Shown here: positions 21,781-63,032 of the stretch, piece by piece | How the letters are laid out: every line of letters starts with the position of its first letter | How positions within the stretch are numbered: position 1 is the stretch's first letter | Source: Mobula hypostoma | Taxonomy: Eukaryota | Direction of reading: 5' to 3' | Assembly: GCF_963921235.1 (NCBI RefSeq) | Contig: NC_086097.1 | Coordinates: 78,308,001 to 78,372,000 of the forward strand | DNA length: 64,000 nucleotides | Notes under the pieces: model-generated | The model's database searches: none | Seen by the model: only the letters and a program-made list of their open reading frames with translations | Told to the model about the DNA's origin: nothing | Program-made: the position numbers and the translations under genes

Positions 21781-22614
21781 CATTTCTGGCCCTAAGCAAG
21801 CGAAAAGGAAAAATGGCATAGATTGAAATTACTTAAAGTACCTACATACCTCTTTAAAAGGAGAATATGGAAAAATATTCTGATGGCAATCCGTTTACTT
21901 ATAATTGAATACCCTTGGATCTCAACACCTTTGTGAAATTTAAGGAAGCTTGCACGGAATAATACATGCACACAGATGTCATTAGTCCATAAATCTAATA
22001 CCGATAATCTGCTTATATATCCAAAGATGCCCAGGGAATGTAACCATACAAAAGAGCCAGTGAACAAGTAGAGTTCTTTGTACTTTCCAAAACCACCTAT
22101 GGGGATTGTATTTTAGTTTCTATTGGACCCAGGAATCTTACCTTAATGCACACAAAACAATGTTCACCTACTCCTCTATTAGTATCTGGCCTGAAGTCCA
22201 TATCAAAGCTATCTATGACATTTAATCTGCATGTATGGATGCTTTGTATACTTGCTGTATAATGGTGCAGTGCAGTAACAGTGAGAAAAATATCTTGTTT
22301 CCTGAAACTCAGAAGACAAAGGTGTGAGGCAGAAAGGTGAACCTGACACATCATCAAGAAGGCAAGTCCTTCAAAATTCTATCAGTTCATACGATGATTA
22401 TATTTATTTTCTACGTATAGAATATTTTTCAGAATTCATTTGATGAGTTGAAGGTCACTGTTGTGATTTCTTGTTAAGATTTAGTTTGATGTATTTTCTC
22501 TGTAAACTGCTTCAACAATGTTGTATAATTATTACTGTTGCAATTAGATTTAAAGTAATGAAAAGGTTCCTATTCATAGATAATTTTAATAAACAGAAAT
22601 TATGAAATCTCACA

Positions 22615-23031
22615 ATATGCACAAAATGCTGAAGAAACTCCATTCCATGAAGGGGAATAAACAATCGATGTTTTGGACAAGCCACTTCACCAGGACTAGA
22701 AAAGAAAAGGGTAGAAGCCAGAATAAGAAGGTGGGGCAGGGGGGAGGAATTACAAGATGGCAGGAGATAGGTGAGACAAGCTGAGGGGAATGATGGGTGG
22801 GTGGACGAGTGAGGATGATGGAAGAAACTGGGAGGTGATCGGTTGAAGACGTAAAGGACTGAAGAAGAAGGAATCCAATTCCTTCCGTGAACCAAGGAAT
22901 AAAGGGAAGGAGGTTGGGAACCAGGAGGAGGAGATTAACAGGTTATGAGGGTGGGGGAGGAGAAGAGAAGAGATGAGAAGATTTATGTGCATTGCTCAAT
23001 ATTTCCAGCATCTGCAGAATCTCTTGTCTCC
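22615..23031. mobile_element. Penelope-derived element with inverted terminal segment
   Basis: 13-bp TSD atgaaatctcaca (22602-22614 and 23032-23044). Homologous to the Penelope 3' region at 31290-31600; ends with the opposite-orientation terminus atttccagcatctgcagaatctcttgt. Confidence 0.8.
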
Positions 23032-23919
23032 ATGAAATCTCACAGACGTTCTACCAGCCTCCTGATTTAATTCCAGCAGGAACCTCAAAAGACAGCAAGT
23101 ATTCTATGCAACCTATTCTCTTGTCATATTTTAGGGGTATCAGTGGTCTTCCAAGAGAAAACCTTTCAATGCAACATGTATGATAACTATGGCATCCATC
23201 ATGGGCACTTCATTTTCACAGCACTCACATGGACCTTTCTTTCTAGAAAGCTTTCTTTAAAAGTTGCAAATAAAATTGGTTCATTACTTGGAAAATAAAA
23301 GGAAATAAGTTTCAAATAGAGATCTCTGAATTTTAAGGAAATTACAACAAAAGTCAGTTTATTTATTTGACAAACTTATTTTTTACCTGTTAAAATATTT
23401 TGCAATGATATGAGACATCTCATGATCCATAACTATTAAATTTCATCATACATTTGAATAGAAAGCAGCTCTGACGATCTAGATGTAGAAATACTGTACA
23501 TCAGCACTTACTTTGCAAGATAGTGAAAAGAAGATTAAGATGATATAAGCACACTAAGGTCAATCCAAAGAAACCTTACAGTCAGTGTCTACTACCTTAA
23601 TTCAAATAACCTACTAGCACAGAATAACTCATAGTGTGGGCTACATAGGTTTCTTAGAATAACTGCAAACAAAATCTGGCAAGGTGGCAGGTCTTCAAAG
23701 GCTGTAGTTTGTGATAAAAAGTGTTGATGTTTCCAAAGAAAAGTAGATTTAACGGTGACTTGTGGGTAGTAGCCACATCTCTGATGCTGACGATTTAGAG
23801 ATGTGGGATGTGCTAATGATCCTGCCATTGCTTTTCTTGGTGGTAGAGATCATAGTTGAGCAACTGAAGCACATTTTGTCAAAGTAATCCACTGCAATTA
23901 CTGTGCACTGTTTGTCTGG

Positions 23920-29465: not shown

Positions 29466-31250
29466 TGGCTTAAGTGAATGAAACAAAAACATTGGCAGAT
29501 GGAATATAATGTGAGGAAATGGGAAATCATCCACTTTAGAAATAAAATAAAAAATGTAAATTACTATTTAAATGGACCAGACTACAAAATGTTGAAGTAG
29601 AAAGTTATCTGGAGGTCCTAGTATATGAAATACCACAAGTAAGCATGCAGGTACAGGAATAATTAGAATGACTAGTACAAAGTTGATCTTTATTGCAACA
29701 GATAGAAGATATAGCACAGAACAGTACAGTACAGTATGGGCCCTTCAGCTCATGATGTTGTACTGACCCATATAAACTTATTCCATGATCAATCTAACCC
29801 TTTCTTCCTACACAGCTCATATGAAGTATAAAAGTACAAAAGTAATGAAAGCAAATTTATAGAGTGCTAGTGAAACCACCGTTAGAACTATGCATGCAGT
29901 TTTGGTCTTCACATTTAAAGAAAATTGTGCTTGTATTGAAGGCAGTGCAGAAAAGTTTCACTGGATCAATTCTTGGGATAAAATGTTTGATGTATGAAGA
30001 ACAATTGAGCATGCTAGGCATACTGTATAATGATTGGAGAACAGAAATATACAAGATTCTGGGGAGAATCTATATGGTGGATGCTAAGAACGTGTCCAAC
30101 TAGGATGCATAGTTTCATAGTTCACAAAAAAGGGATTTCCCATATTAAAAATAGGTATGGTGAAATTTCTTCTCTCAGAGCATTGCAACTCCTTGGCATT
30201 CTCTAATTCCAGGTAGCTAGATGACAGAATTGATGGCTTTGTAGCCAAGTCTGTGGAAGATCAGATGATACAATAGGTGGGGGGGTGCAGGTAGTGTTGA
30301 GGAAGCAAGGAGTCTGCAAAAGGACTTAGACGGATTAGGAGAATGAGCAAAGAAGTGGCAGATGGAATGCAGTGTAGGGAAGTGTACGGTCATGCACTTT
30401 GGTAGAAGGAATAAAGACAAAGATTATTTTCTCAACAGAGAGTGAATTAGAAATCAGAGATGCATAGAAACTTGAGGGTCCTGGAGAAGGATTCCCTAAA
30501 AGTTAACTTGCAGGTTGGAACAATAGTAAAGAAGGCAAATGCAATATTAGTATCAGTTTCATAGAATATAAAAGCAAGGATGTAATGCTAAAGCTGTTGG
30601 TCAGACCACATTGGGAGTATTGTGAACAGTTTTGGGCCCCATATCTAAGAAAGGATGCACTGGTATTGGAGAAGATTCAGAGGAAATTTACAAGAATGAT
30701 TCTGGTATTGAAGAGGTTAATGTATGAGGAGTGTTAGATGGCTTTGGGCCTGTACTCGCTGAAGTTTGGAAGAATGAGGTGGGGAGATCCTACTGAAAGC
30801 AACCGAATATTGGAAGTCCTAGAGTGCAATAGTGTGAGAGTACTGCCTCAGAACAGAAGATGTCCATTTAGAACAGTGATAAGAAGGAATTTCTTTAGCC
30901 AGAGGATGATGAATCCTTGGAATTCATTGCCACAGACTGCTGTGGAGGATAAGTCATTTGCTATTTTTAAGGCAAAGGTTGAGTGGTTCTTGATTAGTAA
31001 GTGGATCAAAAGTTAGGAAAGGCAGGAAAATGAAGTTGAGAGGAAAAATAAATCAGCCATGATTGACTGGCAGAGTGGACTCAATGGTTTGAAACTAATT
31101 CTGCTTCTGTGTCTTACGGTGTTATTGCCTAACTGTGAATGCAAGGTTGTTGAATGTATTCAAGGTGGGGATTTATAACAATTAAACTACAAAAGAGCAA
31201 AATATGTAGTGAAAATGGGAAAATGGCATAGAGGTCAACACTGGATCTGG
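29466..31250 (+). mobile_element. Stacked CR1 fragments (older copy interrupted by a second CR1 at ~30215-31125)
   Basis: Two successive passes through the same CR1 RT C-terminal region (KKWQMECSV, QFWAPYLRKD, RRNFFSQR). Confidence 0.75.
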
Positions 31251-31251
31251 T

Positions 31252-32180
31252 AAACACAAAATAATCTGCAGATGCTGGGATCAAAGCAACACTTACAACA
31301 TGCTGGAGGAACTCAGCAGGTCGGGCAGCATCCGTGGAAACGATGTGTCGACGTTTTGGGCCAGAACCCTTCGTCAGGACTGAACAGAGAAGGGGCAGAG
31401 GCCCTATAAAGAAGGTGGGGGAGGGTGGGAAGGAGAAGGCTGGTAGGTTCCAGGCGAAAAACCAGTAAGGGGAAAGATAAAGGGGTGGGGAGGGGAAGCA
31501 GGGAGGTGATAGGAGGAAAGGTCAAGAAGGAATAGGGGAAAACACAATGGGTAGTAGAAGGAGGCAGAACCATGAGGGAGGTGATAGGCAGCTGGGGGAG
31601 GGGGCAGAGTGAAATAGGGATAGAGGAAGGGAGGGGGAGGGAATTACCAGAAGTTGGAGAATTCTATGTTCATACCAAGGGGCTGGAGACTACCTAGATG
31701 GTATACGAGTTGTTGCTCTTCCAACTTGAGTTTAGCCTCATCATGGCAGTAGAGGAGACCATGTATGGACGTATCTGAATGAATGGGAAGCAGAGTTGAA
31801 GTGGGTGGCTACCGGGAGATGGTGTCTGTTGTGGCGGACGGAGCGGAGGTGCTCGACGAAGCAGTCCCCCAATCTGCGTCGGGTTTCCCCGATGTAGAGG
31901 AGGCCGCACCGGGAGCACCAGATGCAATAGATGACCCCAACAGACTCACAAGTGAAGTGTTGCCTCACCTGGAAGGACTGTTTGGGGCCCTGAATGGTGG
32001 CAAGAGAGGAGGTGTAGGGACAGGTGTAGCACTTACGCTTACAGGGATAGGTGCCAGGTGGGAGATCCATGGGGAGGGACATGTGGACCAGGGAGTTGCG
32101 GAGGGACCGATCCCTGCGGAAAGCGGAGACAGGTGGAGAGGGAAAGATGTGCTTAGTGGTGGGGTCCTGTTGAAGGTGGC
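31252..32180 (-). mobile_element. Penelope-like retroelement, 5'-truncated (GIY-YIG endonuclease plus pLTR)
   Basis: ORF 31741-32082 FTCESVGVIYCIWCSRCGLLYIGETRRRLGDCFVEHLRSV is a PLE GIY-YIG domain. Possible 9-bp TSD ggatctggt/ggatttggt (31243-31251 and 32181-32189). Confidence 0.92.
31348..31381 (-). ncRNA. Minimal hammerhead-ribozyme-like motif in the Penelope pLTR (core GAAA mutated)
   Basis: Minus strand: agtc CTGACGA a gggttctggccc AAAA cgtc gac. G12 is replaced by A, so it is probably inactive. Confidence 0.6.
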
Positions 32181-34671
32181 GGATTTGGTTCCTTCTATCA
32201 TGGGGTCAAGTAATTTAGTTTTATAGTAAATAGATGATAACACAAATACAAAATGAATTAATAAAGTAACTAAAACTATGATTTGAACAAGTTAAAGCAA
32301 AATACCTGCACGAGGAAGAAAGATGAAAATAGTTTTCAAAAATACATAAATGTACAACGTGGTAGACAATAATTATCTTGCTCAAATTTCAAACATTGAT
32401 CCAATGCATTTTCATAATTTACCAATTAGATATCTTTGAAAAAAATTGCCACATGTGTTTATCTTTGCCCCTTCCTCCCTTTCACCAAGCAAAACATGAT
32501 TAGCGATGTAATCACACATGATACTCATGTAATTAAGTACAGAAGTTACCAAGATTGAAAGCTGGTCAATTAAAATGACCAGCTTTAATGAGTTAAAGAC
32601 CTAACTCACTTCAGGCAACTGAAGGAAACCAACTCAGCTGTGTTTGTCATTTTGTGAGTATGTATTGTTCCATGTGTCAGAAGTTATTACTTTTGTTAAT
32701 GCCGAAGTATGTATTGTACTGAAAGCTATATATCAAATTGACGACAGAATTTAATTTAGCAACAGTAGACTTACTGGAAGGTAATCTGACCTGTGAATGA
32801 ATACAGTGTTGGTCTCCATGGAGTATGGATATGCTTCAACATTTTTGTTCAACTGGTTGATCACAGGTTACCTGAAGGGATGTTAGATTTTCAATGGTAA
32901 TATTCAGATGTTCCTAAAATTAAATTACTACACCAGAAGCTAAAATCATACCATATAAAACTATAAAGAATAGATTTTCATTCATTCCTTCCAGATGAGA
33001 ACATGAGGGTTCTTGGATGCAAAGTGTAACAGATTATTTTAGTACTACAGAAATCTGCAACTGTGTTCTTGTGTTGAAAGAAGGCATCCAGAGAAGAGTT
33101 GAGAACTCTAAAAGATAATGCAAAGTTTTATGTAAACTGATGCTGATGGTGCAACTTGCAAACCACACCAGGGTTTATGACTAGAGATTTTGTTCATCTA
33201 TCCACAACAATTTCACACTCTTGCTCCAAAGCATTCTGCAGTTTTTAACCTTTCTTTAACTATTAAAAGAAGATTAGTAACAGAAGTAGAGCATATGATA
33301 GTTAATATCAACTTTGACTGCTTCTTCTATAATTTCTCCATGTAACTTCAAAAGAAAGCAATGCTCTATCTAAACTGTGGTAACCTAAACTTTGATTTGA
33401 ATAATAGGAAAGCATTAGTGTGGATTTCTCCTTGCTTTAGGTCTTTTAGACTTTCTAATTTATCCTGAGAGATAGTTAGCATTTACTGCAAAAAGGCAAA
33501 AGACATAAGGATAACTAATATATTCTTAGAATAAAATCATGGTTCATTGTCCAGTTTGAATATCTGAACATAAAATCACATCTATGCTCTAATACAATTG
33601 TTGCTTTTTTCAGCTTTCTTAGAAAGAAGATCAATAGCTTACCCCATTCCACTAAAATTTCAGCAGGGTTCTTATTTGATGACTCAATGTTTACTAAATG
33701 TATTCATCTTACCTTATTCCCCTGAGATAAAAGGCTCCATCTAGTGTTCCTCTGTAGAAATTATGAAAGTAATTGCCCATCTATAATAAGCATATTCTGC
33801 AACAGTGTGAGGAATATTTATTTATTTACTTGCTTACTTAGTTACTTACTTGATGCAAACAAGTGCTAAATGTGAGCATCACTGGCAAGAACAGCAATTA
33901 TTCTCCATCTTTAATTGCTCTTGAAGAGTGGTAGTGAGCTGGTCTCTGGAACCACACCAGATTGCAGCAAGGGTTTCACCAAAATGTGGAAGTTAAGGAG
34001 TTCAAGGATTTTGACACAGAGATGATAAATGAGTCCCTTTAACTTTCCAAATCAGGACTGTGTGCAACTTAAGGGAATGTGGAAGTATGGGTATTTCATA
34101 GAAACATAGAAAACTTACAGCACAATACAGGCCCTTCGGCCCACAAAGCTGTGCTGAACATGTTTTTACCTTATTTCCATGTGTCTTTTGCCATTGTCTT
34201 ACACAGTAGAGACAATGTGGGATACAACAGAAAAAGAAATCAAAAGATACTGCCACCACAGTGAAGTTTTCATTACTTATGTTAATTTAATATATCATAG
34301 CAGATGTCAACAGAACTGGACACAGTGTAATGAATGGGCTCCTCTCATATGAAAAGTTTATGAGGTGACACGTAGATAAAAGAATACCACACTTAATGGT
34401 AATTTTCATCAGGGAATAAAATAAGTACTGGAGGGAGAAATTACCAAAGAAATATAGGTATATCACAGTGTCTGGCCATTTTGAAGCAATACTTTAGGAG
34501 TGCTGCACCACCATGGGTGTTGCCTTTTATACGTAGCCTGAACCAGAGGTCCTGTCCGCTTCTTCAAGCAGAAATAAAGTATGTTCAGAAAGAAATTAAA
34601 GATCCTGTTTGTTTTAGATTTCTCTAAATCCAGTTTAGTTTTTCCATCTCAACCAATAGTATTAAGAAGAG

Positions 34672-43005: not shown

Positions 43006-43867
43006 CGGAGGGAGCCTCTATTGCCTCCATAAACAAAGAATTCCACAGATTCATTATTCTCTAGGAAAAGTGGCCCATCTTCATCTCTGTCATAAATCTA
43101 CTTCGCCAAATCTTGAATCTATATCCGTTAGTTCTACGCTCACTTTGACCGAGAGAACAAGGAGGCCACCCTCAAAGTGGATCTCCAACCTGGTGAACTG
43201 CCTGTCTCACTTTCCATCTCTGATGTTTACACCACCCTGAGCAGGGTGAATGTACGGAAGGCAGCTGGTCCGGATGAATTACCTGGCCGTGTGCTCAGAG
43301 TATATTCAGGACAGTTGGCTGGGGTCTTCACGGACATTTTTAATCTGTCCCTGGCCCAGGCAATTGTCCCCACAAGCTTCAAGATCGCTACCATCGTGCC
43401 AGTGCCGAAGAATTCCACTGCCACGGGCCTGAATGACTTTCGTCCAGTTGCACTCACCCCGATCATTGCAAAGTGCTTTGAGAGGCTGGTTCTATCACAT
43501 CTGAAATCCTGTCCGCCCTCTACCCTGGACCCCCATCAATTTGCCTATCGCACCAACAGGTCAACAGAGGATGCCATCTCCACGGCACTTCACTCTGCCC
43601 CGACCCACCTGGACAGCCCCAACTCTTACGTCAGAATGCTGTTCATTGACTTTAGTTTGGCATTCAATACTGTGATCCCCTCCAAGCTGATCACCAAACT
43701 TCACCAGCTTGGTATCAGTGTATCACTCTGCAATTGGACCTTGGACTTTCTGACTAACAGACTCCAATCAGTTAAGTTAGACAAGTTCTCCTCCTCCACT
43801 CTCACCTGAACGCCGGCGTGCCTCAAGGCAGTGTGCTGAGCCCTCTTTTGTACTTCCTTTTCACCTA

Positions 43868-45467
43868 CAAACCCCATTTCCAGAAAAGTTGGGATATTTT
43901 CCAAAACACAATAAAAACAAAAATCTGTGATATGTTAATTCACGTGAAACTTTATTTAACTGACAAAAGTACAAAGAAAAGATTTTCAGTAGTTTTACTG
44001 ACCAACTTAATTATATTTTGTAAACATACACAAATTTAGAATTTGATGGCTGCAACACACTCAACAAAAGTTGGGACAGAGGCATGTTTACCATTGTGTT
44101 ACATCACCTTTCCTTTTAATAACACTTTTTATTCATTTTGGAACTGAGGATACTAATTGTAGTAGATTTGCAATTGGAAATTTTGTCCATTCTTGCTTGA
44201 TATAAGACTTCAGCTGCTCAACAGTCCGTGGTCTCCGTTGTCTGATTCTCCTCTTCATGATGCGCCATACATTTTCAATAGGAGATAGATCTGGACTGGC
44301 AGCAGGCCAGTCAAGCACATGCACTCTGTGTCTAAAAAGCCACGCTGTTGTAGCCCGTGCAGAATGTGGTCTGGCATTGTCCTGCTGAAATAAGCATGGA
44401 CGACCCAGGAAGAGACGTTGCCTTGATGGCAACATATGTCTCTCTAAAATCCTAATATACGCCTCAGAGTCAATGGTACCTTCACATACATGCAACTCAC
44501 TCATGCCGTGGGCACTGATGCACCCCCATACCATCACAGATGCTGGCTTTTGCACCTTTCGCTGATAACAATCTGGATGGTCGTTTTCACCTTTGGCACG
44601 GAGAACTCGACACCCGTTTTTTCCGAAAACTAGCTGAAATGTGGACTCATCTGCCCACAGCACACGGTTCCACAGTCTTTCAGTCCATCTGAGATGAGCT
44701 CGGGCCCAGAGAACTCGCCGGCGTTTCTGCATAGAGTTGATATATGGCTTCCTCCTTGCATAATACAGTTTCAAGTTGCATTTCTGGATGCAGCGACAGA
44801 CTGTGTTGAGTGACGATGGTTTTCCGAAGTACTCCTAAGCCCGGGTGCCTATAATTGTCACAGTAGCATGGTTTCTTAGGCAGTGCCGCCTGAAGGCTCG
44901 AAGATCACGCGCATTCAACAATGGTTTCTGACCTTGCCCTTTATGCACTGAGATGTCTCTGAATTCTCTGAATCTTTTCACAATATTATGTACTGTAGAT
45001 GTTGAAAGACCTGAATTCTCTGCAATCTTGCGTTGAGAAATGTTCCTTTTGAACTGACTAACAATTCTCTCACAAATTTTGGCACAAAGGGGTGAGCCAT
45101 AACCCATCCTTGCTTGCAAAGGCTGAGCCCTTGATGGATGCTACTTTTATACCCAGTCATGATACCTCACCTGCTACCAATTAGCCTGCTTAATGTGGAG
45201 TCTTCCAAACCGGTGTTACTTGAATATTCTGTTCACTTTTCAATCTTATTTTAACTCTGTCCCAACTTTTGTTGAGTGTGTTGCAGCCATCAAATTCTAA
45301 ATCTGTGTTTATTTACAAAATACAATTAAGTTGGTCAGTAAAACTATTGAAAATCTTTTCTTTGTACTTTTGTCAGTTAAATAAAGGTACACGTGAATAA
45401 CATATCACAGATTTTTGTTTTTATTGCATTTTGGAAAATATCCCAATTTTTCTGGAAATGGGGTTTA
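43868..45467 (-). mobile_element. Full-length Tc1 DNA transposon (IR-DR type TIRs, about 210 bp)
   Basis: TA TSD at 43866-43867 and 45468-45469. TIR caaaccccatttccagaaaagttggg... is mirrored at the right end, with an inner repeat aaaagttggga. Confidence 0.97.
44088..45107 (-). pseudogene. Tc1 DD34E transposase, about 339 codons, two in-frame stops
   Basis: One frame from MGYGSPLC to KGDVTQW*. Catalytic motifs WADES, QQDNARPH and SPDLSPIE with 34 residues between D and E. Stops at 44835-44837 and 44133-44135. Confidence 0.93.
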
Positions 45468-46798
45468 TATGACTGCGTTCCTATACATGGTTCTAACTCC
45501 ATAATCAAGTTCGCAGACGACACCACGGTGGTTGGTCTGATCAAAGGGAATGACGAGATGGCTTACATGGTTGAGGTTCAGCACCTGGCTGCGTGGTGTG
45601 CCGACAACAATCTGGCCCTTAACACCCAGAAGACCAAGGAGATCATTGTGGACTTCAGGTATGCCAGGAGTCACACTCACATCCCCACCTACATCAACGG
45701 AACTGTAGTGGAGCGTGTTCCAAGCTTCAAATTCCTTGGTGTCCACATTTCCACAGATCTCACCTGGTCCCTGAACTCCTCCATCCTGATCAAAAAGGTG
45801 CAACAGCGCCTTTATTTCCTGCGGAGCATGAAGAAAGCTCACCTCTGTCCCAGGATACTGATGCTATACCATTGAGAGCATACTCACCAACTGCATCGAA
45901 GTGTGGTATGGCAATTGTCCCGTATCGGACCGCAAAGCACTCCAGCGTGTGGTGAAAACTGCCCAGCGGATTATCGGCACCCAATTGCCCACCATTGAGA
46001 ACATCTACCACAAACGCTGCCTGGGCAGGGCAAAAAGCATTATCAAGGATGCATCTCACCCTAACCATGGACTTTTTACTCTCCTCCCATCCGGTAGGCG
46101 CTACAGGAGCCTCCGCTCCCGCACCAGCAGGCGCAGGAAGAGCTTCTTCCCTGAGGCTGTGACACTGCTGAACCTCTCATCACAGCGCCAAGCAGTGTTG
46201 CATCTGTATTGTACTGTCTCAGTACTTTTATGTTTGTGTGCTGTAGCCCTTTTTTTATTCACAGTTATTTTGTAAATAACACTATTCTTTGCATTTCTGG
46301 TCAGGTGCTAGATGCATTTCATTGGCTTTGTATCTGTACTCGGCCCAATGACAATAAGGTTGAATCTAATCTAATTTAGTTCTAGTCTGAGCTACTAATG
46401 AAAACAACTTTACTGCCTCTATCTTACTTTACTTTGCCCTTTCATTACTTTATGTTTCTATAAGATCCCCTCTCATTCTTTTAAATTCCAATGAGTACAG
46501 TCAAAGGGAATAAACATTATGAGACAAAATGTGTTCAGTATCAAGATTTCTTGTGATTTTACATGATTGTTAATCCACAAGATTCACATAAATGCAAAGA
46601 CAGATTACAAAACAAATAAATTCTGAGTCGAAACTACAAGGTACAGTTGTTGGAATTGCTACTGAGCAATTAGGCAAGAAGAAAGATCAATTTATAAACC
46701 AAAACTTTCAACAATGATCCACATTGTACCACAGTATATACTGTATAAACAAAACATTGAAGTCTTGGCCATTATCTGACATGCATACAGGTTGCTAG

Positions 46799-47325: not shown

Positions 47326-47723
47326 TGCAAGATCAAAATGATAAAGCCCAAGTAAAGTAAAACTTTACTACATTATTAAACTTGTGATGTTGGTAGCTTA
47401 ACCTAGATAAAGACTATTAATCATACAACATAATTGTAATTATTATCCAATACCTCATTCTATGTAGCTATCAGCTTGTGAATACCATCAAAAAGAGGTC
47501 CAAGTCCAATTTTTCTAAATGAATTGTGTCTGAATTTTGTTTTATAAATATTATCCTTTAACTGTGATATCTATATATGCACTGGATTTGAAAAAGATGA
47601 AAGCAGCATTTTTCAGGAAATATTTTATTAAAATTATCATTGTGATGTAGATATATCAATACCTCATATTTTCTGTAGCACTAATGCATTTCTAATTTAA
47701 AAAAACACTTTACTAACAAGAAA

Positions 47724-47942
47724 TACACACAAAGTGCTCGAGAACCTCAGCAGGCCAGGCAGCATCTATGGAAAACAATAGTCGACGTTTCGGGCCGAAA
47801 GCCTTCGGCAGGACACTGACGGATCTTGGCCCGAAATGTTGACTATACTCTTTTCCATAGATGCTGCCTGGCCTGCTGAGTTCCTCCAGCATTTTGTGCG
47901 TGCTGCTTGGATTTCCAGCATCTGCAGATTTTCTCTTGTTTG
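47724..47942. mobile_element. Penelope-derived fold-back (palindromic) short element
   Basis: 14-bp TSD ttactaacaagaaa (47710-47723 and 47943-47956); inverted arms of pLTR sequence with decayed hammerhead motifs. Confidence 0.88.
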
Positions 47943-48439
47943 TTACTAACAAGAAAGAAATTTTAAAGGATTACACCCCACAGCAAGAATGTGCTGAATG
48001 CTTCAAATTTGACATTCTTCTCAGGGGTAATAGGGGCTAAATAAGATAGCCCGCCAAAACAAGTACAGGTGCTGATTAACACATTCTTATTGACAGCAAT
48101 GCAGGTAGCACACCAACTCCAAACTGTCTGGTTTTTATAACATTGGGGGAAGTATGGCAAGTCCTCTGCTGTTCTGCGATTACTATACTTCTGTTATTTC
48201 TTCCAGTATGATGTTGACTAGGTTTTTTGTTGGAAGGTCAGCTATCAGCACAACAGCATAGGGATGAATACAGAAGGGATTCTTCGAACACAAATGACTG
48301 TCTCTGCTTATAGAAGGCCTTGAGAACCAATGAAGCCAAGCTCTGCTGAAAAGAAGCTGACTAGTTGTAAAAACTGACACTGTTACTGAGCACTTGTAAA
48401 TACCTTTGCCTTCACAAAACCAAACATTTTAAACAAAAG

Positions 48440-49242: not shown

Positions 49243-49424
49243 ACAAACAAGAGAAAATCTGCAGATGCTGGAAATCCGAGCAACACACACAAAATACCGG
49301 AGGAACTCAGCAGACCAAGCAACTTCGGAAGTCCTGTGGAAGGGTTTCGGCCCGAAACATTGACTGTATTTTTTTCCATAAATGCTGCCTGGCCTGCTGA
49401 GTTCCACCAGAATTTTGTGTGTTT
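49243..49424. mobile_element. Penelope-derived fold-back short element
   Basis: acaaacaagagaaaatctgcagatgctgg...gaggaactcagcagacc followed by the inverted arm ...ggcctgctgagttccaccagaattttgtgtg. Confidence 0.8.
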
Positions 49425-49508
49425 TCCTTCAAAAGTGATGAACTCAGATAGCCAGAGGCCACTGTCTAACCCAGAGTGCAGTTTCTCTAGGAGTTTAATA
49501 ATCATATA

Positions 49509-50909: not shown

Positions 50910-53900
50910 TCACCCAATAAGAAAGTCCAATACAGGGCCCCATATCCTTTCAAAGATGTCCCCTCTGTCCTCATTACACAGCCTCAGTCTCTCCAAATGT
51001 AAAGTATTTGCCAGTTCTCTCAGCCACAGATCGTACGTAGGCACAGAGTCCATTTTCCACATTTGCAGGATGAACTTCTTAGCAATCACCATTCCAAACA
51101 ATACAGCCATTTTTTCATACGTATTGGCTGAAGATAGGGAGCTTGTTTCTCCAAGGACGGCTATGAGAAGGTCTGGTTCCCACCGCTTCTCAAAAGCCTC
51201 AGAGAAACAGTGAAAAGTACTTCTCCAGTATGCATAAAGCTTACAACATGACCAGAATGAACATGACAAGTTAATGTTCACAGATTTACATTTATTACAA
51301 ACTAGTGAAACATCAGGGTAGAAACTGTGCAACTTTTCTTTGGAATAATGGAGTCTATGTATTGTTTTGAACTGTATAAGTCTGTATCTGACATTGACCG
51401 AACAATCATGTATACTCTTTAAACATTCATCCCAGACCTCCTCTGTCAGTTCTATACCCAATTCATCCACCCATGCCTGTTTAAGACCTGCAGTATTCAC
51501 CCAAGCTCCATTATGTAGGATCTGATAAAAATAGGATACCGCACTACGAGAAACAGGATCAAATTTATTTATTGCCTCCAGGGATTCATGTTTGTCTAAA
51601 ACTTCGAAGTTAGGTATATATTTCCTAACATAATCTCGAATCTGTAAATATCTAAAAAAAACTAAATGCAGGGATATTGTAAACTGCTTGTAACTGTGCA
51701 AATGAGGCAAAGTTTCCATTAACATATAGGTCACCTACACCACAGATGCCTCTCTGTTTCCAGGTAGAAAAAACAGTATCATTCAGGCCAGGCAAAAAAG
51801 AATGATTGTCACAAATCGGAGTGTCAATATAAGTTTTTGGGGCCCTAATGTGTAATTGAATCTGCTTCCAAATTCTTATAGTGCTGCCAACCACGAAGCT
51901 GTGACTTATTAACTGCAGTGGGGCTATTAAGGAGAGCTGGTAAGGAAGTCTTCTTACAAAGCATTCGCTCTATGAGTAACCATGCTGGGCATGAGTCTGA
52001 GGTAGAGGGTGGGCCTTTTTTCCACCATGCAAGAATGGATAGGTGGGCAGCCTAGTAATACATTTTAATGTCCGGTAGGGCAAAACCACCTGCTTCCTTG
52101 GGCTTTGACAAGTATTTTTTTAGTAATTTTAATGGCTTTATAATTCCAAATGAAGGGTATAATAATTGAATCCAATTGCTTAAAATATGACAGAGGAATA
52201 AAACATGGAATTGACTGGAAAAGATTAAGAAATCATGGCAGTACAATCATCTTGATTGTGTTAACCCTCCCCACCAAAGAAATTGGAAGGGTTTTCCAAA
52301 AGTCAATATTGCGTTTAACCTGCTCAAATTTGTTTCGCCAATTCACTTGCAAAAAGGTCATCTGGGTTTTTTGTAATAGTCACACCAAGATAGGAAAAAT
52401 TATCGTAAGTTATTTTAAAGGGAATGGACTGTAAATACGCTGTATTAACCACTGCAGTGACTGACATTAGTTCACTCTTTTCCCAATTGATAGAGAAACC
52501 TGAGAAACTACCAAGATTATTAATTAGACTCAGAAGGGCGGGTATTGATGATTGTGGGCTGGAGATATATAAAAGGATATCATCAGCATATAACAAAAGG
52601 TGATGTTTATGCCGATGCATATCAATGGGAGATATCAAAGGGTCCTGTCGGATGCTAACAGCCAGTGGCTCAATGATAACTGCAAACAAAAATGGAGAAG
52701 AGGGGCAGCCTTGACGAGTCCCATGATAAATTGTAAAAGGGGAGGAAATATTCTGAATAGTGATAATAGAAGCCGATGGGTGTGAATAAATTATCTCAAT
52801 CTATTTAATGAAAGATGGTCCAAATCCAAACTTCTTAAGTGCAAACATCATATATGGCCATTCCACTTGGTCAAATGCACGTTGCACATCTAGTGAAATG
52901 ACCACAGCCTCTTCTGCATGTTTTGTATATAAAATATTGAAATGATGATGCAAATTGAAATACATATGTCTACCTGGCATAAAGCCAGTTTGATCTGGAT
53001 GAATAATAGAACGAATACATTATTTTAATCTATTGGCCAGGACTTTCCCAAGAATTTTGGTTTCAATGGGCAGCAGCGAAATGGGGCGAATGATGAAACC
53101 ACCTCGGCATCATGGCCGGGTTTTGGAATCAGAGAAACATTGGCTTTACGTAAAGTGGGTGGCAATCTGGAAGCTGTCCTAGAGTGATTCAACATTCGTA
53201 AGAGTAGAGGTGACAATTTTGGACCAAATACTTTGAAGAATTCCATGCTAAAACCATCCGGACCCGCTGCCTTATTATTGGGGAGGGAAGAGATTACCTT
53301 CTTGATCTCATCTAGGCTTTTATCAGCATCAAGTGTATTTACTGAATCTGTTGACAGTGTGGGCAGATTCAGATTATCAAAAAATGCTTCCATAGCTTCA
53401 ACGTCCAGATTGCCTTGTGATTGGTAAATATTAGCATAGAACTCCGCAAAACACTTATTAATTTTTTCCGGGTCTGTCAATAAAAAGCCATCTTTCGCCT
53501 TTATATGATATATGGCCCTGAAGGCCTGCATCTGTCTTAACTGGCGGGCTAATAACTTATGGGGCTTTTCACTAAGCTCAAAATACCTCTGTCTGACTTG
53601 CGTCAGTAGTTTTGAAACACTCTTGGACATTATAGAATTATACTCATACCATAAAGCAGTAATCTTACTAAGTAGTCTGCTTCCTGGTTTATTTTGTAAG
53701 AAGCTTCCAGATTTGCCAACTGATCACCTACTTCAGTTAACCTTTTCTTGAATGTCCTTTTTTCCGCTGTCTCATATGCTGTTATGTAACCTCTAATAAC
53801 CACCTTCATGGCCTCCCAAAGAGTGGAATCATCAACACCACCCACATCATTGGTGCTTAAGTATAGATCTATCTTATCTGAAAGATAAGAGAAAAAATCC

Positions 53901-54694
53901 TTATCCTTTAGCAAAGCATTATTTAAACGCCAACTATATTCACCTCTTTTGTGGTTCAATTTGAGTATAAGGGAGACAGGAGCATGATCCGATATAAGTA
54001 TATTATGGCAAGTGCAACCGACTATTGACGAGACCAATTTCGAATCTAACAGAAAATAATCAATCCTAGAGTAGGATTTATATGCTGCAGAGAAATATGA
54101 AAAATCCTTCTTCATGGGATTAAGAAGCCTCCAAATATCCACCATGTTATACAATTGCATGAGATTATCAAGTGTTACACTATTTTTAAGTGAACAAACT
54201 TGGGGACGTTGTCTATCTAGTAGGGAGTTTAAGATGCAATTAAAGTCTCCACGTACAATTATGTTATAGTCAGACAGATTAGGTATGGCCTTAAAGAGGT
54301 TCTGAATAAAGAATTGGATCATCAAAGTTGGGCCCGTACACGTTCACTAGTGTCAATGGTATAGAATTTAATATTCCACTTACTATTACATATCTGCCCA
54401 TCTGGTCAGTGATAGTTTATGTATGAATAAACGGTATGGTCTTTTTATTAGGATTGCAACACTGCTAGTTTTAGTACTAAAGTTCAACTGGTAGACCTGA
54501 GATGCTCAGGAGGGACAAAGCACTTTCGCTGCTGTTTTCTTAATGTGCGTTTCTTGGAGAAAACAAATATCAGCTTTGAGTGTACGAGGATATGCATACA
54601 CCTTCCCTCTCTTCAGTGGACTATTCATTCCCCGTACATTCCAGCTGACAAGTTTAGTCTCACCAATGCTGTGCATATGGGAATTAGATGTCAT
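50910..54694 (-). pseudogene. L1 ORF2p (APE endonuclease, RT, C-terminal Cys motif), multiple frameshifts
   Basis: LVSWNVRG, FLQETH, SRIDYFL, ISDHAPV, KAAGPDGF, LYADDILLY and CNKC...SFWSC. Confidence 0.93.
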
Positions 54695-55107
54695 ATCTGC
54701 TGCTTAACAAAAAAAATATGCTGTATGGTCGTGGCATAACACAAACTGGAACTAGAACAAATAGATGTGCTGTAACAACCCCTTGAGAAACACAAAATAC
54801 CCTCCCAAAAATAAAAACACACCAGGAGTAGTACTTCCATACCCCTAACCTAGAGTCAAAACTATATCCAAGAGCCAACACATGGCCCGGAATAGTGAGA
54901 TAACTACCCATTACTCACTAAACACGGGAGAAACACCTCTTCACAAATACACTATGAAATATAAAAATAAACAATAACAATTAGTCCTCACCCACATCTT
55001 AAAGTGAGCTTATTTTTCAGTTCCTCATGCGCTGAACTAACAAACAGTCTCCAGATGAAGCTGCCATCGATCAACGACAAATCCAGTAACCCATTGTTAA
55101 TCCATTT

Positions 55108-55968
55108 TTAAGTTGATACGATGTCCAAATGCCAACCTTTAACTTCTCGGCTCAGGAACTCCTCCGCTACAGCTGCAGTGCTGAATGTACTGGTGGTATT
55201 GTTAACTGTAACCACAAACCTTTCCGGATACTGGAATCCACACCTAATTTTCCTGGCTTTGCATTTCTCCTTAATGTGCTGAAAATCTTGACATTTCCTC
55301 ATGGTAGCCGAGGTTAAATCCGGGTAAATGAACACCAGGCGCCCGTCATATAGCAGCGGAGCTCTCTCCCTGGACAATCGTAGCACCAGCTCTTTAACCT
55401 GGTAGTGGTGTAGCCTCGCAATAATAGCTCTTGGCCTACCATTTTCAGCAGGTGCTAGGCTCCAGTAGGCATGGTCCACTTCAATCGGCTGGTGGGAACG
55501 TTCTTCCCCCAGCAACGTGGCTACAAATTCTGTCGGCGTATTGTTTTCGGCTTTCTCCGGAACCCCAATAATGCGAATGTTTTGACGGTGAGACCGAGCT
55601 TCAAGGTCATCCAACTTAGCCTATAGCTGTGTGGTTTGGGATATTAGGCTTTCAAGCCGCCTCTCCAACTCATCGATTCGCCTCTCATACGATTTGGCGG
55701 TATCCTCAATTAAAGAAACATGCTTACTGACTTCAGTTAGAGCCGCTGTTAGGTTCATGATTGACTTACTATGCTCTGCATGTCTCCCGTCTACCAAACT
55801 GTACAGTTTGTTTACTGCCACAAGGACTTCTTCAATGGTAGTTGGGACCGGGGCCCCAGCAGCATTGGCTTTAGCTTCTCCTGGGCCCACTAGCTTCACG
55901 GAGCCCTCGTCAGGATCTTCTTCTCGTGCACCCTTTTCTTGTTTCTTCCCTTTACCTGGCTTCGTCAT
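55108..55968 (-). pseudogene. L1 ORF1p (coiled coil plus RRM/CTD), one in-frame stop
   Basis: MTKPGKG...YERRIDELERRL...*AKLDDLEARSHRQNIRIIGVPE...RPRAIIARL...FIYPDLT; TAG at 55621-55623, same frame on both sides. Confidence 0.92.
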
Positions 55969-58900
55969 TTCATTCAGCCTGTTACAGCTCACTTCAGTCT
56001 CTTAAAAAATAAGAATTAACTGCTGTTTGGGTGAGGCAAAGGTGAAGGTAGGTGCAGCTCCTGGGACACACGTCCACTCCATACCAGGACCCCACGTGAC
56101 ACCCCCCTCTGTTTTTCTAAGCTCCATGTACCTGTCCAGGAGTCTCTTAAGAGACCCTATCGTATCCACCTCCACCACCATCGCTGGCAGCCTACCCCAC
56201 GCACTCACCACTCTCTGCGTAAAAAACTTAGCCCTGACATCTCCTCTGTACCTACTTTCAAGCACCTTAAAACTGTACCCTCTCGTGTTAGCCATTTCAG
56301 CCCTAGGAAAAAGCCTCTGACTATCCACATGATCAATGCCTCTCATCATCTTATACACCTCTATCAGGTCGCCTCTCATGCTCTGCCGCTCCAAGGAGAA
56401 AAGGCCGAGTTCACTCAACCTCTTCCCATAAGGTATGCTCCCCAATCCTGGGAACATCCTTGTAAATCTTCTCTGCACCCTTTCTATAGTTTCCACATCA
56501 TTTCTGTAGTGAGGTGACCTGAAATGAGCACAGTACTCCAAGTAGGGTCTGAACAGGGTCCTATGTAGCTGTAACATTACCTCTCAGCTCTTAAACTCAA
56601 TCCCATGGTTGGTGAAGGCCAATGCACTGTATGTTTTTTTAACCACAGAGTGCCCTATGAATTCGGACCCCAAGATCCCTCTGATCCTCCACACTGCCAA
56701 GAGTCTTACCATTAATACTATATTCTGCCATCATATTTGGCCTACCAAAGTGAACCACCTCACACTTATCTGGGTTAACCTCCAACTGCCACTTCTCAGC
56801 CCAGTTTTGCATCCCATCAATGTCCTACTGTAACCTCTGACAGCCCTTCACTCTACCCATAACAGCCCCAACCTTTGTGTCATCAGCAAATTTACTAACC
56901 CATCCCTCCACTTCCTCATCCAGTTCATTTATAAAAACCACGAAGAGAAGGGGGTCCCAGAACAGAATCCTGAGGCACACCACTGGTCACCAACCTCCTT
57001 GCAAATTATGACCTGTCTACAACTACTCTTTGCCTTCTATGGGCAGGCCAAATCTGGATCCACAAAACAAGATCCCCTTGGATCCCATGCCTCCTTACTT
57101 TCTCAATAAGCCTTGCATGGGTACCTTATCAAGTGCCTTGCTGAAATCCATATACACTACATCTACTACTCTACCTTCATCAACATGTTTAGTCACATCC
57201 TCAAAAAATTCAATCAGGCTCGTAAGGCACGACCTGCCTTTGACAAAGCCATGCTGACTATTTCTAATCATATTATGCCTCTCCAAATGTTTATAAATCC
57301 TGTCTCTCAGGATCTCTCCATCAACTTACCAACCACTGAAGTAAGACTCACTGGTCTATAATTTCCTGGGCTATGTCTACTCTCTTTCTTGAACAAGGGA
57401 ATAACATCTACAACCCTCCAATCCTCCGGAACCTCTTCCGTCCCCATTGATGATGCAAAGATCATTGCCAGAGGCTCAGCAATCTCCTCCCTCACCTCCC
57501 ACGGTAGCCTGGGGTACATCTCGTCCAGTCACGGAGACTTATCCAACTTGATGCTTTCCAAAAGCTCCAGCACATCCTCTTTCTTAATGTCTATATGCTC
57601 AAGCTTTTCAATCCGCTGTAAGTCATCTCTACAACTGCCAAGATCCTTTTCCGTAGTGAATACTGATGCAAAGTATTCATTAAGTACCTCTGCTATCTCC
57701 ACTGGTTCCGTACACACTTTTCCACTGTCACACTTAGTTGGTCCTATTCTCTCATGCCTTATCCTCTTGCTCTTCACATACTTGAAGAATGCCTTGGGGT
57801 TTTCCTTAATCCTGTCCGCCAATGCCTTCTCATGGCCCCTTCTGGCTCTCCTAATTTCATTCCTTAGCTCCTTCCTACTTAGTTTGTTATACCTTTCGTA
57901 AGCTTTTCTTTTCTTCTTGACTAGATTTTCAACAGCCTTTGTACACCATGGTTCCTGTACCCTACCATCCTTTCCCTGCCTCATTGGAACGTACCTATGC
58001 AGAATCCCATGCAAATATCCCCTGAACATTTGCCACATTTCTGCCATACATTTCCCTGAGAACACCTGTTCCCAGTTTATGCTTCCAAGTTCCTGTCTGA
58101 TAGCTTCATATTTCCCCTTACTCCAATTAAACACTTTCCTAACTTGTCTGTTCCTATCTCTCTCCAATGCTAAGGTAAAGGAGATAGAATTGTGATCACT
58201 ATCCCCAAAATGTTCTCCCACTGAGAGACCTGACACCTGACCAGGTTCATTTCCCAACACCAGATCAAGTACAGACTCTCCTCTTGTAGGCTTATCTACA
58301 TATTGTGTCAGGAAACCTTCCTGAACACACCTAACAAATTCCACCCCATCTAAACCCCTTGCTCTATTTGGAAAATTAAAATCTCCCACCATGACAACCC
58401 TGTTATTATTACACCTTTCCAGAATCTGTCACCCTATCTGCTCCTCGATGTCCCTGTTACTATTGGGTGGTTTATAAATAACACCCAGTAGAGTTATTGA
58501 CCCCTTCCTGTTTCTAAACTTCCACCCACAGAGACTCAGTAGACAAACCCTCCATGACTTCCTCCTTTTCTGTAGCTGTGACACTATCTCTGAGCAGCAG
58601 TGCCACTCCCCCACCTCTTTTGCCTTCCTCCCTGTCCTTTCTGAAATATCTAAAGCCTGGCACTCTAAGTAACCATTCCTGCCCCTGAGCCATCCAAATC
58701 TCTGTAATGTCCACAACATCATAGTTCCAAATACTAATCTATGCTCTAAGCTCTTCCCCTTTGTTCATGATGCTTCCTGCATTAAAATAGACATTTCAAA
58801 CAATCAGTCTGAGTGCATCCCTTCTCCATCACCTGCCTATCCTTCCTCTTGCACTGTCTCCAAGCTTTCTCTATTTGTGAGCCAACCACCCCTCCGTCTC

Positions 58901-59438: not shown

Positions 59439-61220
59439 TTCTTCTTGTACTGGCTCATCCTTCTAGATATTACATCTGCTTATTCTCCCAGTTACAGTGT
59501 ACTTCACGGAGGATATGTACGAATGAATATACACCTGGTCATTTTTGGCTTATGAAGGAGCATTGAGATTCATTGACTCGCAGGACTTCTTAAAACGCAT
59601 CTAACATTTGCTTACTAACAACATCCAGACAGTAACTGACTACTCTCATCTGGAGTATTACTTCATGAACAAATAAATAGACATAATACATCTGCTCAGC
59701 TGGTTTTCATTTCATGATTTTTAACTTTTCTATGTGGGTTAGTCTGGTAGGATTTGTTTTTGTCAATATTTTCAAACAAACATTAAAAAATAATGGAAAG
59801 TAGCAATGGTAAAATCAGTATGATTCCACTGCAACTTGTGAAAGATAAAGGTATATTTTCATGGAAACTGGAATAGGTCAGGCCGCCTGTTCTGCCATGT
59901 TATTATCTACGGCATCTTAATTTGTTATAAAGTCAAACTTTCACCAACTTTGCCTCCTTTAAGTGTCCTTATATCATAAGAATAAAGCTATCAATAAGAC
60001 AACTACATTTATTCTGCATATGATAATGGAAAACATTGAATCATAAAAGATTATGATATGGAAGGAAGCAATTCAACCAATCAGGTCAATGGCAGCCAAA
60101 ATTTTAGCAATTTTGATTATTCTTCTTTTTCAATGCTCAATCTAGAGCCTTGAAGACTATGACTTTTCAAGTATTTATCCAGATCCATTTTAAATGTGGG
60201 ATTTCTGCTCCACCATACTTCCATGTGATGAATCCCAAACCTCCATTCATCTACAAGTGAACAATCTCAATGCCTTTCTAATATTTCAGGATTTTTCCTT
60301 GAAAACTACTATTTGCATTCTACATTTTCATAGCTTTTGTGTTGCTATATTCTTCGGGATTATTTTTCATAGTTTCAATGTGACCTGTGAAAGGAAGAAT
60401 AGGTAATGACGTATGTGACAAACTGTACAATATCTTATACTGTACTTAGTACCATTTAACTTAGTGTTTTCTTAATTCATAATCCTCTGGTTTATAGCTT
60501 GTTATTCTAAATAGTAGCAGCATTTTGGCACCTTCTTCAACTTTACACCTCCCACAATCAAAACAATTTATGTACTTATAAAGCTAACAACATTGAACCA
60601 AAGCTGCAGTAAATCCACAGTGATTATACTTACACAACAGTTCCTCAGATTCTCAGAAGAATTTCAACTGTTCTCAACTAGAATAATACTAATTAGTGTT
60701 AAAACTATGTCTGAACCTTTTTTGACAGATACCACAGCATCCTTTGTCTAAATCATCCATGTATAACCTAAGCTTAGAACTAGCAATAAAAGATGCTAAA
60801 GGTACATTGCTATTGGCTAATTGGAAAACAGAGATTTTGCCAAATACATAAGCTCTGGCTTTTTCAAACAAGAAAAATATTTTCCTTTAGATTTGCACAT
60901 TTTAATGTCCCAGGGTAACGATCTCCACCTCAAACCAATTCCCAGATTCATGCTGACATTAAATGAAGAGACAGCAGTAAATTACTTTCTTCCTATTCCC
61001 ACAGCCAACCTGATACCTGCAGTTATATTCATTCTGGGAATAATAACTAAGTTCCTTGCTCACAAATCTCTGAACAATGGAGCTAGGACATAACTACAGA
61101 GTAAGTCATAGACATTCTTGGTGATTTGAGCAGAAAACCCATTGTATAATGGATTGAGCAACACACATCAAAGTTGCTGGTGAACGCAGCAGGCCAGGCA
61201 GCATCTCTAGGAAGAGGTAC

Positions 61221-61256
61221 AGTCGACATTTCGGGCCGAGACCCTTCGTCAGAACT
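61221..61256 (-). ncRNA. Minimal type-I hammerhead ribozyme motif (core intact)
   Basis: Minus strand: AGUU-CUGACGA-A-GGGU(CUCG)GCCC-GAAA-UGUC^GACU, giving stem I AGUU/GACU, stem II and a loop-less helix III. Confidence 0.7.
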
Positions 61257-61262
61257 AACGTT

Positions 61263-61298
61263 AGTTCTGACGGAGGGTCTCGGCCTGAAACGTCAACT
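61263..61298 (+). ncRNA. Minimal hammerhead-like motif (variant core)
   Basis: AGUU-CUGACGG-A-GGGU(CUCG)GCCU-GAAA-CGUC^AACU; stem I pairs perfectly, but position 9 is altered. Confidence 0.55.
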
Positions 61299-63032
61299 GT
61301 ACCTCTTCCTAGAGATGCTGCCTGGCCTACTGCATTCACCAGCAACTTTGATGTGTGTTGCTTGAATTTCCAGCATCTGCAGAATTCCTGTTGTTTGCAT
61401 ATAATGGGTTGAGTAAGGTTGATGTATCACTAAAGGAGTGTGAGGCTGCTTGTGTTTATTTAAACAATTTACCCTATTTCAAAATGTCAGCAAACAATTG
61501 ATATTTTATTGTGAATGTGATGTTGTTTTACAAAGGTAGTAGACCTATGACTGTAAATATGTAAACCTAAAAATATACATCTGCTCCTTCTATTCAATGA
61601 TTGCATTATTCGTTTTCATAACATCAGGTCAAAGAGCATTCTACAAAAAATATTTTTTTCATCTTAATGCATGGACGTCACAATCAAAACCAGATTTAGT
61701 TTGCCAGTGAGGTACAAATGTACTAACAAATACAACATCTTAAATATTGCATATAAGGAAGAACAAGGAAGAGAAGAAGCTGTCCGAATCTAATGGGATG
61801 TATTGTAGAGGCACTTGAAATGCAAGGAATGAGAAAAAAATATCAGGCTAATTTTAGAAAATCAGCTGAGAAATGGCTCTCTGTTCCCTTAGCAAATTGA
61901 ACATGTATCAGGATAGCAATTACAAGACAAACTAATGCACCCACCTTTAAGACTCAAAATATCTTTTATTCATTGCAATTCATTAGGCAATCTTGCCATA
62001 TGGTGAACAAACATTCATTGCACATACTGCTAATGTATTCCAGAGATTAACATCCCACTGCAAAATGAATTTCTCACTGGCATCAAAATAATTCCTTTCA
62101 TTTGTTGAATATATTCCCCACTCTTAAGTTTTCCATTGCCTGTCAAATTTGGTAACCTATCTATTTGAATAGCTTCTTATCCTCCATTATGCTAAAGCTC
62201 AATCATATTCTCATAAAGAGTATACTTTCCCACAGCTTTCAAAAGAAATTCTAACTTTCCAAGTCAACCATGATTTCTAGAGGTCCTTAAGACAGCCATT
62301 AATCAAGTGACACACCCTGAATTTTAGGCCTAATTCAATATTCTCCACCAGTATTGTGGATTATCATCAGACACAATAATCCAGATGGATCCAAGAAAGT
62401 CACATTTTCATGATGAGAAATATGCTTTACTGCTTCTTATCATTCATCCCAGTTGTACAGCCTAAATTATTAGGGTTGTTTGTACTGGTATTCATGGATA
62501 GTCTGGATTGTGATTTTTTTATGATCATTAGCTGTTATACAATGTGTGCCTCTACCTTTCAACTTCTCTTGGTGAAAAATTCAAAGAGATCAGATTATTG
62601 TAGGTAATCACACCTGTAATAAGGTTAGAAGAGGCCATTTGACCCAATTGTGCTCATTCGGTTTATTTTGAAAAAGCAGTCATGCATGGTCCACAAGTGC
62701 ATTTTTGTCCATAAGTCTTATCCTCATCTTAAAATGCCTGAATAACTCTCTTTTCCAGCGGTGTTCCAAATCCTGAACATGCTAACCAAAGGGGGAAAAA
62801 AATCTCCTTACTTCCCCTGTGATTATTAAATGCAACATTTCTAGTTGATTCATCACTCACCAGATCATCCAAGCTTATTTCATATATAAAAACCCTCTTT
62901 GTTTATAAAACCTCAACACTTTCTTTGTTTCAAGGACAACAAGCCTTCTCATTTTCTTTAAATAATGATGTCCAAAGTTAAAAGTTGTAACTTCATTCGG
63001 TAACTAACCAATAGATTTTAACATTTTACTGT

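Follow-up and report, generated by a model that had tools for sequence, protein, structure and literature searches.

A putative Penelope-like fold-back insertion in the ray Mobula hypostoma, with hammerhead motifs on both strands that look like decaying passengers

The window analysed here, a stretch of 64,000 nucleotides from Mobula hypostoma (contig NC_086097.1), contains a fold-back insertion whose two palindrome arms, 61157-61259 and 61260-61362, are 103 nt long each, 94% complementary and separated by a spacer of 0 nt. The palindrome, together with a one-sided tail, is enclosed by a target-site duplication (TSD), the left 14-bp copy of which (61145..61158) pairs with the right one (61400..61413) at 13 of the 14 positions with one mismatch; among 3000 pairs of 31-nt zones drawn at random with identical spacing, none reached 14 nt with at most one mismatch. 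The final two nucleotides of the left copy are in addition complementary to the right arm and match the template of the Penelope-like element (PLE)—a 2-nt microhomology—so that the insert proper covers 61159-61399 (241 bp) and the tail measures 37–39 nt. All three elements of the original prediction, i.e. a near-perfect palindrome of about 206 bp at 61157-61362, a tail of about 37 nt and a 14-bp TSD, were thus recovered.

Within the insert, which forms a single hairpin without any ORF and in which each PLE copy is down to 101–140 nt, the left arm (61159..61259, minus strand) is the inverted, tail-less and 5'-truncated PLE end, as seen from the comparison of the arms, whereas the right arm (61260..61360, plus strand), delimited by the same comparison and by the family letters in public contigs, is the direct 5'-truncated one. 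The PLE tail (61361..61399, plus strand) accompanies one arm only and is outlined by the window copies and by the contig ends, the 3' ends of the PLE family in public contigs accumulating at 61396-61400. The sense 3' end of the left arm lies at an internal boundary, 37–39 nt before the end of the tail. The head-to-head junction (61259..61260) has no spacer, both arms halting at the identical template nucleotide, 7 nt upstream of the core C3 of the hammerhead motif. The arms differ at six sites, all of them transitions and four in CpG context. The right arm probably holds five of the six differing letters as derived changes, three of these being minority letters in the family: in the run X1, the right-arm A at 61295, 61329 and 61334 is outnumbered by the family letter G, accounting for 80%, 97% and 71% of the depth, respectively. 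None of the public runs is on record as RNA. The run X15, which is RNA only by conjecture and has no coverage of the unique flank, shows raised G fractions at these three positions, but an origin by editing was rejected, since such fractions occur in DNA runs, too.

Concerning the relatives in the window, it holds seven insertions of the PLE end sequence with eleven arms, and a profile built from these eleven arms retrieved no further copy in the window. An independent fold-back of a related subfamily is located at 47710..47956 (plus strand), having a 14-bp TSD, a different junction and a 40-nt tail, and an older sibling at 22602..23044 (plus strand) combines a long inverted arm with a short tailed one (tail of 37–39 nt) within a 13-bp TSD. 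All three TSD-bounded inverted insertions (TSDs of 14, 14 and 13 bp) differ in their junctions, and in all three one tail-less arm ends 37–40 nt short of its partner. The junctions of the copies 49244-49432 and 22602-23044 are asymmetric or contain inserted letters. A TSD was sought for 49244-49432 with no result, and for 31250-32200 with only doubtful candidates.

It is the last-mentioned copy (31250..32200, minus strand) that links the fold-back to a protein. It represents a 5'-truncated PLE with a GIY-YIG/CCHH endonuclease fragment, preceded by a CX3CxxC linker, and a hammerhead-plus-tail end sharing 72% identity with the right arm of the fold-back; judged by that identity, it belongs to a related subfamily and is not the direct parent. 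The frame 31744-32187 (minus strand) exhibits the GIY-CxxC-YIG motif plus His residues, the Pfam GIY-YIG match of the copy (E=0.024) being under the curated cut-off. All 14 longer relatives of this sibling protein align at 59–85% identity, 11 of the 14 being named from rays or sharks and the best ones originating from Hypanus and Mobula; these nearest named proteins would by themselves make a ray the probable host. One of them, P0007, contains both RVT_1 (E=0.008) and GIY-YIG (E=0.00025), both under the cut-off, with a CX4CxxC linker upstream of the GIY-YIG instead of the sibling's CX3CxxC, and a sequence search with P0007 against the PDB gave no match. A CX2-5CxxC linker at this place has been described as a mark of the Neptune/Nematis-type PLEs (PMC8557442), so that the linker motif points to a parent PLE of that type. 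Read from the sequences, the fold-back is best described as two 5'-truncated ends of an EN+ PLE placed head to head, linked to the GIY-YIG domain via the sibling. The PLE origin and the minimal type-I hammerhead identity assigned previously are both supported. Pattern scans gave no match in either viral contigs or prokaryotic genomes; the 66 metagenome loci they yielded were taken as chance, since the alignment did not exceed 29 nt for any of them.

The layout of inverted copy, tail and TSD is already a published PLE pattern. PLE insertions typically have a 5'-truncated copy in inverted orientation next to them and, at one end, a tail of 30–40 bp (PMC8557442), and rotifer PLEs are reported with inverted pLTRs, TSDs and palindromic junctions (PMC3846280). 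The complex EN+ PLE insertions described in these sources share with the present one the head-to-head inverted copy, the tail at one end, the palindromic junction, the short TSD and the hammerhead in the pLTR; unlike them, both copies here are reduced to 101–140 nt, forming one 241-bp hairpin with no ORF, and the TSDs of the window insertions, 13–14 bp, compare with 8–10 bp in the rotifer examples reported there.

There are two hammerhead motifs in the insertion, 6 nt apart, facing outwards on opposite strands. The minus-strand motif (61221..61256, predicted cut between 61225 and 61224) is a minimal type-I hammerhead with an intact core, matching C3-U4-G5-A6-N7-G8-A9, G12-A13-A14, A15.1 and U16.1-H17; it has an extra A between A9 and G10.1, and the G10.1-C11.1 pair is present. 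The 4-mer of its helix III reads AUGU and is no longer self-complementary, owing to CpG decay at 61228. The plus-strand motif (61263..61298, predicted cut between 61294 and 61295) is damaged, A9 being changed to G at 61273 and C11.1 to U at 61286, leaving a G10.1-U11.1 pair, with the helix-III ACGU intact. The palindromic 15.2-16.2 needed for a dimeric helix III is thus absent in the core-intact copy and present only in the core-damaged one, the computed helix-III duplex amounting to +2.6 kcal/mol for AUGU and -1.7 kcal/mol for ACGU. With regard to the original prediction, the claim that the minus copy keeps every core nucleotide was borne out by the position check, and a motif does exist on each strand, the plus copy failing on its core; the palindromic ACGU helix III applies to the plus copy and not to the minus one.

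Among the checks proposed with that prediction were a search with Rfam hammerhead models by Infernal and a descriptor scan. No Rfam hammerhead model matched, either locally at E up to 10 or at the gathering score across the window; the Rfam matches to rliD and microRNAs, located on the hairpin, were rejected as below their gathering scores. The minimal-hammerhead descriptor, on the other hand, had 61221-61256 (minus strand) as its sole match in the whole 64 kb, against a background of 2 matches in 200 Markov-1 simulated windows, the plus copy giving no match; the full descriptor was passed by one of the nine hammerhead-region arms in the window. Over eight window arms, stem I/II pairing was retained in 89.7% of the cells, slid controls reaching at most 51.7% and 198 of 500 shuffles being as high, and one compensatory stem cell was counted in this small sample. 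Four of the six differences between the arms of the fold-back fall inside the 36-nt motif, i.e. there is no depletion (for enrichment P=0.12), and at 2.9% divergence a 12-nt core would be expected to escape change in about 70% of cases. Both hammerheads look more like passengers in decay than like an RNA switch at work, the decay appearing neutral as far as six arm differences can tell.

In comparison with the metazoan minimal type-I PLE hammerheads (PMC4209133), both the 4-bp helix I and the extra nucleotide between 9 and 10.1 are shared, as are G10.1-C11.1 in the minus copy and the palindromic 15.2-16.2 in the plus copy. The differences consist in the helix II of 3–4 bp, the spacing of only 6 nt between the motifs and the loss of one hallmark feature in each copy of the fold-back. 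For Schistosoma, pairs of minimal hammerheads on opposite strands have been reported 100–700 bp apart (PMC4209133).

As RNA, the element folds at -194 kcal/mol (plus strand) and -200.5 kcal/mol (minus strand), with z of about -25 and -28, and 0 of 200 shuffles on each strand folded as well. The transcript would form a duplex of about 100 bp with four (plus) or two (minus) mismatches, and the geometry anticipated earlier—the antisense arm first and then the ribozyme, whichever strand is transcribed—was confirmed. Forcing the hammerhead fold costs 59.5 (plus) and 53.2 (minus) kcal/mol in the full element and 50.8 (plus) and 46.4 (minus) kcal/mol in the nascent RNA, the stem-I pair probabilities in the hairpin being about 1e-34 to 1e-37. 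The competition between the duplex and the ribozyme, proposed in the original prediction, would accordingly be decided by 46–60 kcal/mol in favour of the duplex, a penalty at which masking would be complete.

In order to view the family beyond the window, the contigs of four out of 24 listed public runs were compared with 61236-62200, a reference made up of 24 nt of the left arm followed by the right arm and the right flank. The PLE-end family is very abundant: in the run X1 the summed contig depth was about 1e7 for the arm and 15.2 for the flank, a ratio that is not a copy number. It should be noted that, with 24 nt of the left arm in the reference, the left ends of joints are visible only within 61256-61259, and the exact-centre form is not directly countable. 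Eleven of the 15 joints listed (out of 86) come from X1, with depths of 21–67, i.e. 1–4 times the flank depth, and each of these 11 resumes elsewhere, between 61288 and 61376; such a scatter indicates other fold-backs with other centres and not a family with a fixed centre. Junctions with inserted letters or asymmetry are seen in the contigs as well. Two of the joints recur across runs, 61257->61338 in X1 and X5 and 61257->61304 in X1 and X9. Of the 62,176 X1 contigs aligned to the reference, only 90 extend past one of its ends, and among the contigs listed none spans the whole stretch. As to the locus itself, a contig of organism B crosses the border from the flank into the tail with 9 differences in 824 nt, indicating that the insertion is common to organism B. 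In organism C, a contig meets the flank precisely at 61400, the 2131 nt before this point not matching the element; the flank diverges by about 5% (41 differences in about 795 nt), and the contig probably represents an empty site.

Taken together, the identity of the parent as an EN+ PLE and the role of the hammerheads as passengers are held with high confidence, whichever mechanism made the junction. As for that mechanism, a single retrotransposition event of an EN+ (Neptune/Nematis-type) PLE by dual priming, followed by neutral decay, is the account we favour, and it seems reasonably probable. The PLE RT-endonuclease would nick the two strands of the target at a distance of 14 nt, thereby creating the TSD, and each nick would prime a cDNA on uncleaved PLE RNA. 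One cDNA would begin at the outer start site, thereby including the tail, and the other at the inner start site 37–39 nt upstream, aided by the 2-nt microhomology. Synthesis of both would end at one shared point a little upstream of the hammerhead, for which the simplest candidate is the 5' end of the RNA. Joined head to head, the two cDNAs would give the order observed, in which the tail-less inverted arm is followed by the direct arm and its tail, with a TSD on either side. The hammerhead would be found on both strands only because it lies inside the copied 101–140 nt, and the later changes would be those of neutral decay, chiefly CpG deamination.

The steps of this scheme have their closest analogue in the Anolis Poseidon element PAc. 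Its protein is reported to cut and extend both strands in vitro, with two RT start sites bracketing the tail and the hammerhead upstream of it; it is a predicted dimer that uses mainly uncleaved RNA as a template, and its hammerhead cleaves only in the presence of the protein (PMC11167929). The ray element would resemble PAc in these start sites, in the position of the hammerhead, in the processing of both strands and in the uncleaved template, although the window sibling has the CX3CxxC linker of the Neptune/Nematis type and Poseidon is described without it. The searched text of the anole study (PMC11167929; Frangieh) does not discuss inverted insertions, and the mechanism behind inverted PLE junctions is stated to be unresolved in another source (PMC8557442). 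Hammerhead cleavage as the cause of the truncation was considered and rejected, since the arms retain the whole motif and 61295 is never a resume point among the joints listed (15 of 86 and 12 of 93).

The same element could also have arisen by self-priming, the cDNA or an antisense template snapping back at the point of truncation and being copied back, with the second end resolved at the inner site and the hammerheads still being passengers. A symmetric centre with zero spacer is what such a snap-back would leave, and it would likewise account for the stem-I position 61266, where both arms—the position and its mirror—have an identical non-CpG T, in contrast to the C of all five sibling arms, belonging to other subfamilies, that have a letter there; these two features fit the snap-back just as well as they do dual priming. 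Self-priming on an antisense template has, moreover, been proposed for the palindromic PLE junctions of rotifers (PMC3846280). Many junctions are, however, asymmetric or have inserted letters, and the tail-less end coincides with the second RT start site seen in vitro, which is a direct consequence of dual priming. Self-priming is thus regarded as a possible but rather unlikely origin.

Considerably less probable is a MITE-like, non-autonomous family of palindromes sharing one fixed centre, which would be mobilised as a unit, either as RNA via PLE proteins or as DNA. The compact size and the TSD would suit such a family, two near-symmetric short fold-backs do occur within 64 kb and the two joints mentioned above recur in more than one run, but the centres of the window fold-backs differ, the 11 distinct X1 junctions among the joints listed reach only 1–4 times the flank depth and contigs crossing either reference end are as rare as given above. 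In addition, a terminal inverted repeat would be present at both ends, and the tail is confined to one.

The original prediction went further and suggested a possible self-masking ribozyme and dsRNA substrate; its strongest reading would be a selected ribozyme or exapted dsRNA element in which cleavage would be switched by the duplex or which would feed Dicer. The intact minus core with its rare descriptor match, the masking energy of 46–60 kcal/mol and the presence of the insertion in organism B speak in its favour. The energy gap itself is, nevertheless, excessive for a switch, so that on the modelled energies masking would be burial. Neither copy joins an intact core with a palindromic helix III, this helix being lost in the minus copy and the core damaged in the plus one, and, the motifs lying on opposite strands, a single transcript never carries both, which precludes a dimer within one RNA. 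A schistosome minimal PLE hammerhead has been reported without detectable activity as a monomer and with low activity as a dimer (PMC4209133). The motif shows no substitution deficit, the junctions vary between copies and the insertion is probably missing in organism C; no sign of selection for masking was seen in this element, and a masking function is considered highly improbable. An artefact of the assembly is just as improbable, and so is a rearrangement into a fold-back at the DNA level following a simple insertion, for even though none of the contigs listed spans the whole stretch, the six arm differences follow a CpG-decay pattern, a clean 14-bp TSD encloses the entire unit and the identical anatomy recurs with other TSDs.

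The hairpin may still have consequences as RNA. Read-through RNA would zip into the hairpin of about 100 bp with the ribozyme buried, and a duplex of this length with 2–4 mismatches makes ADAR editing a plausible by-product if the locus is transcribed. By analogy, heavy editing is reported for a lizard Penelope and for a palindromic frog Harbinger of about 200 bp (PMC5625713). These Xenopus and lizard ADAR substrates share with the fold-back a self-folding repeat of about 200 bp that needs no partner copy; the Xenopus Harbinger differs in being a DNA transposon whose consensus is itself palindromic (PMC5625713), the palindrome here being newly made at each insertion.

The position of the arm 5' ends deserves a comment of its own. 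Five of the 11 window arms start 0–7 nt upstream of the core C3; these come from three insertions and are not independent. In the window copies running through the junction point a pyrimidine tract is found there, followed by AG in two of the three, and the loose-end consensus of X1 at 61260 is pyrimidine-rich with an agreement of 0.61. By sequence, the pyrimidine tract with AG at the upstream edge of the hammerhead resembles a splice acceptor and, by its general consensus, also an initiator. For the intron of the Drosophila Penelope, the 3' limit has been placed at helix I (PMC4209133) and the 5' side 46 nt downstream of the start site (PMC2377424). A wider reading, put forward only tentatively, would see the micro fold-backs as run-off products made by both subunits of a dimeric PLE RT on one short RNA, whose 5' end would be fixed at the upstream edge of the hammerhead, be it initiator- or splice-acceptor-like. 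The ray genome would then be a very large record of the unsolved step of PLE inversion, and it would have in these hairpins its principal built-in substrates for ADAR.

The single locus, a decayed member of a family that is very abundant, is of little weight by itself. Full-text literature searches, covering mostly papers outside subscription journals, brought up no description of this ray PLE family or of the masking of PLE hammerheads by a fold-back. A self-masking ribozyme under selection would be something new, the evidence pointing against it. The clustering of the arm 5' ends bears on the origin of PLE inversions, and the arm-end positions together with arm-shared variants, compared over a large number of copies, could discriminate between dual priming and snap-back. 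Should the tentative run-off reading prove true, the self-made hairpins of about 100 bp would be an equivalent of inverted Alu repeats, produced at each insertion; and if such hairpins are routinely transcribed within introns or UTRs, they would constitute an abundant source of dsRNA in elasmobranchs, comparable to the palindromic Harbinger reported in the frog (PMC5625713).

Concerning the 5′ ends of the arms, five of the 11 arms of Penelope-like elements (PLEs) in the window start 0-7 nt upstream of the hammerhead core C3 (61260, 47814-47816, 49330), at points that differ from the hammerhead cut site; because of this clustering, a defined RNA 5′ end or a stop of the reverse transcriptase (RT) near C3 is suggested. 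In stem I, the two arms of the fold-back have the same T (61266, mirrored at 61253), which is not in a CpG context; the letter is C in five sibling arms. Since several of the contigs compared with the right arm start at 61267, there is a hint that C is the family letter at 61266 and that both arms were copied from one template.

The other PLE copies in the window include an asymmetric fold-back (49244-49432), around which a target-site duplication was sought and none found, as well as a tail-less copy, 42290-42973(-), for which a partner copy was not found. A strand-switch joint (61287/61352) from another locus is present at a depth of 31.7 in X15—a public contig run only guessed to be RNA—which is a slight indication that RNA libraries contain fold-back copies.

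As for the remaining repeats, the element at 43866-45469 is bounded by long terminal inverted repeats of about 216 nt (94-95%). Its transposase frames, on the minus strand, are broken and presumably Tc1/mariner-like judging from their motifs, and the element seems to have landed within the remnant of a LINE-like RT. A GC-rich 35-bp tandem array accompanied by a repeat pair spaced 77 bp occupies 38850-39297, and 50910-56001(-) holds broken pieces of a two-ORF retrotransposon, which we take from its motifs to be L1/Tx1-like.

Matches of 69-85% identity to the PLE endonuclease fragment are found in four public ray proteins (P0001, P0003, P0009 and P0010), whose names describe them as kinase-domain, mucin-2, chitinase-domain or receptor-transporting isoforms. 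Nearly the whole length of P0001 reads as PLE RT/endonuclease; the PLE sequence in these proteins would reflect either misannotation or exonisation.

The three run-through PLE copies in the window carry a pyrimidine tract directly before or inside stem I (31381-31400, 22696-22715 and 42396-42415 (-)), followed by AG in two of them, and the consensus of the loose ends at 61260 in X1, another public contig run, is likewise rich in pyrimidines. The tract resembles a splice acceptor or an initiator, and its position parallels that in Drosophila Penelope, where the intron end coincides with helix I (PMC4209133).
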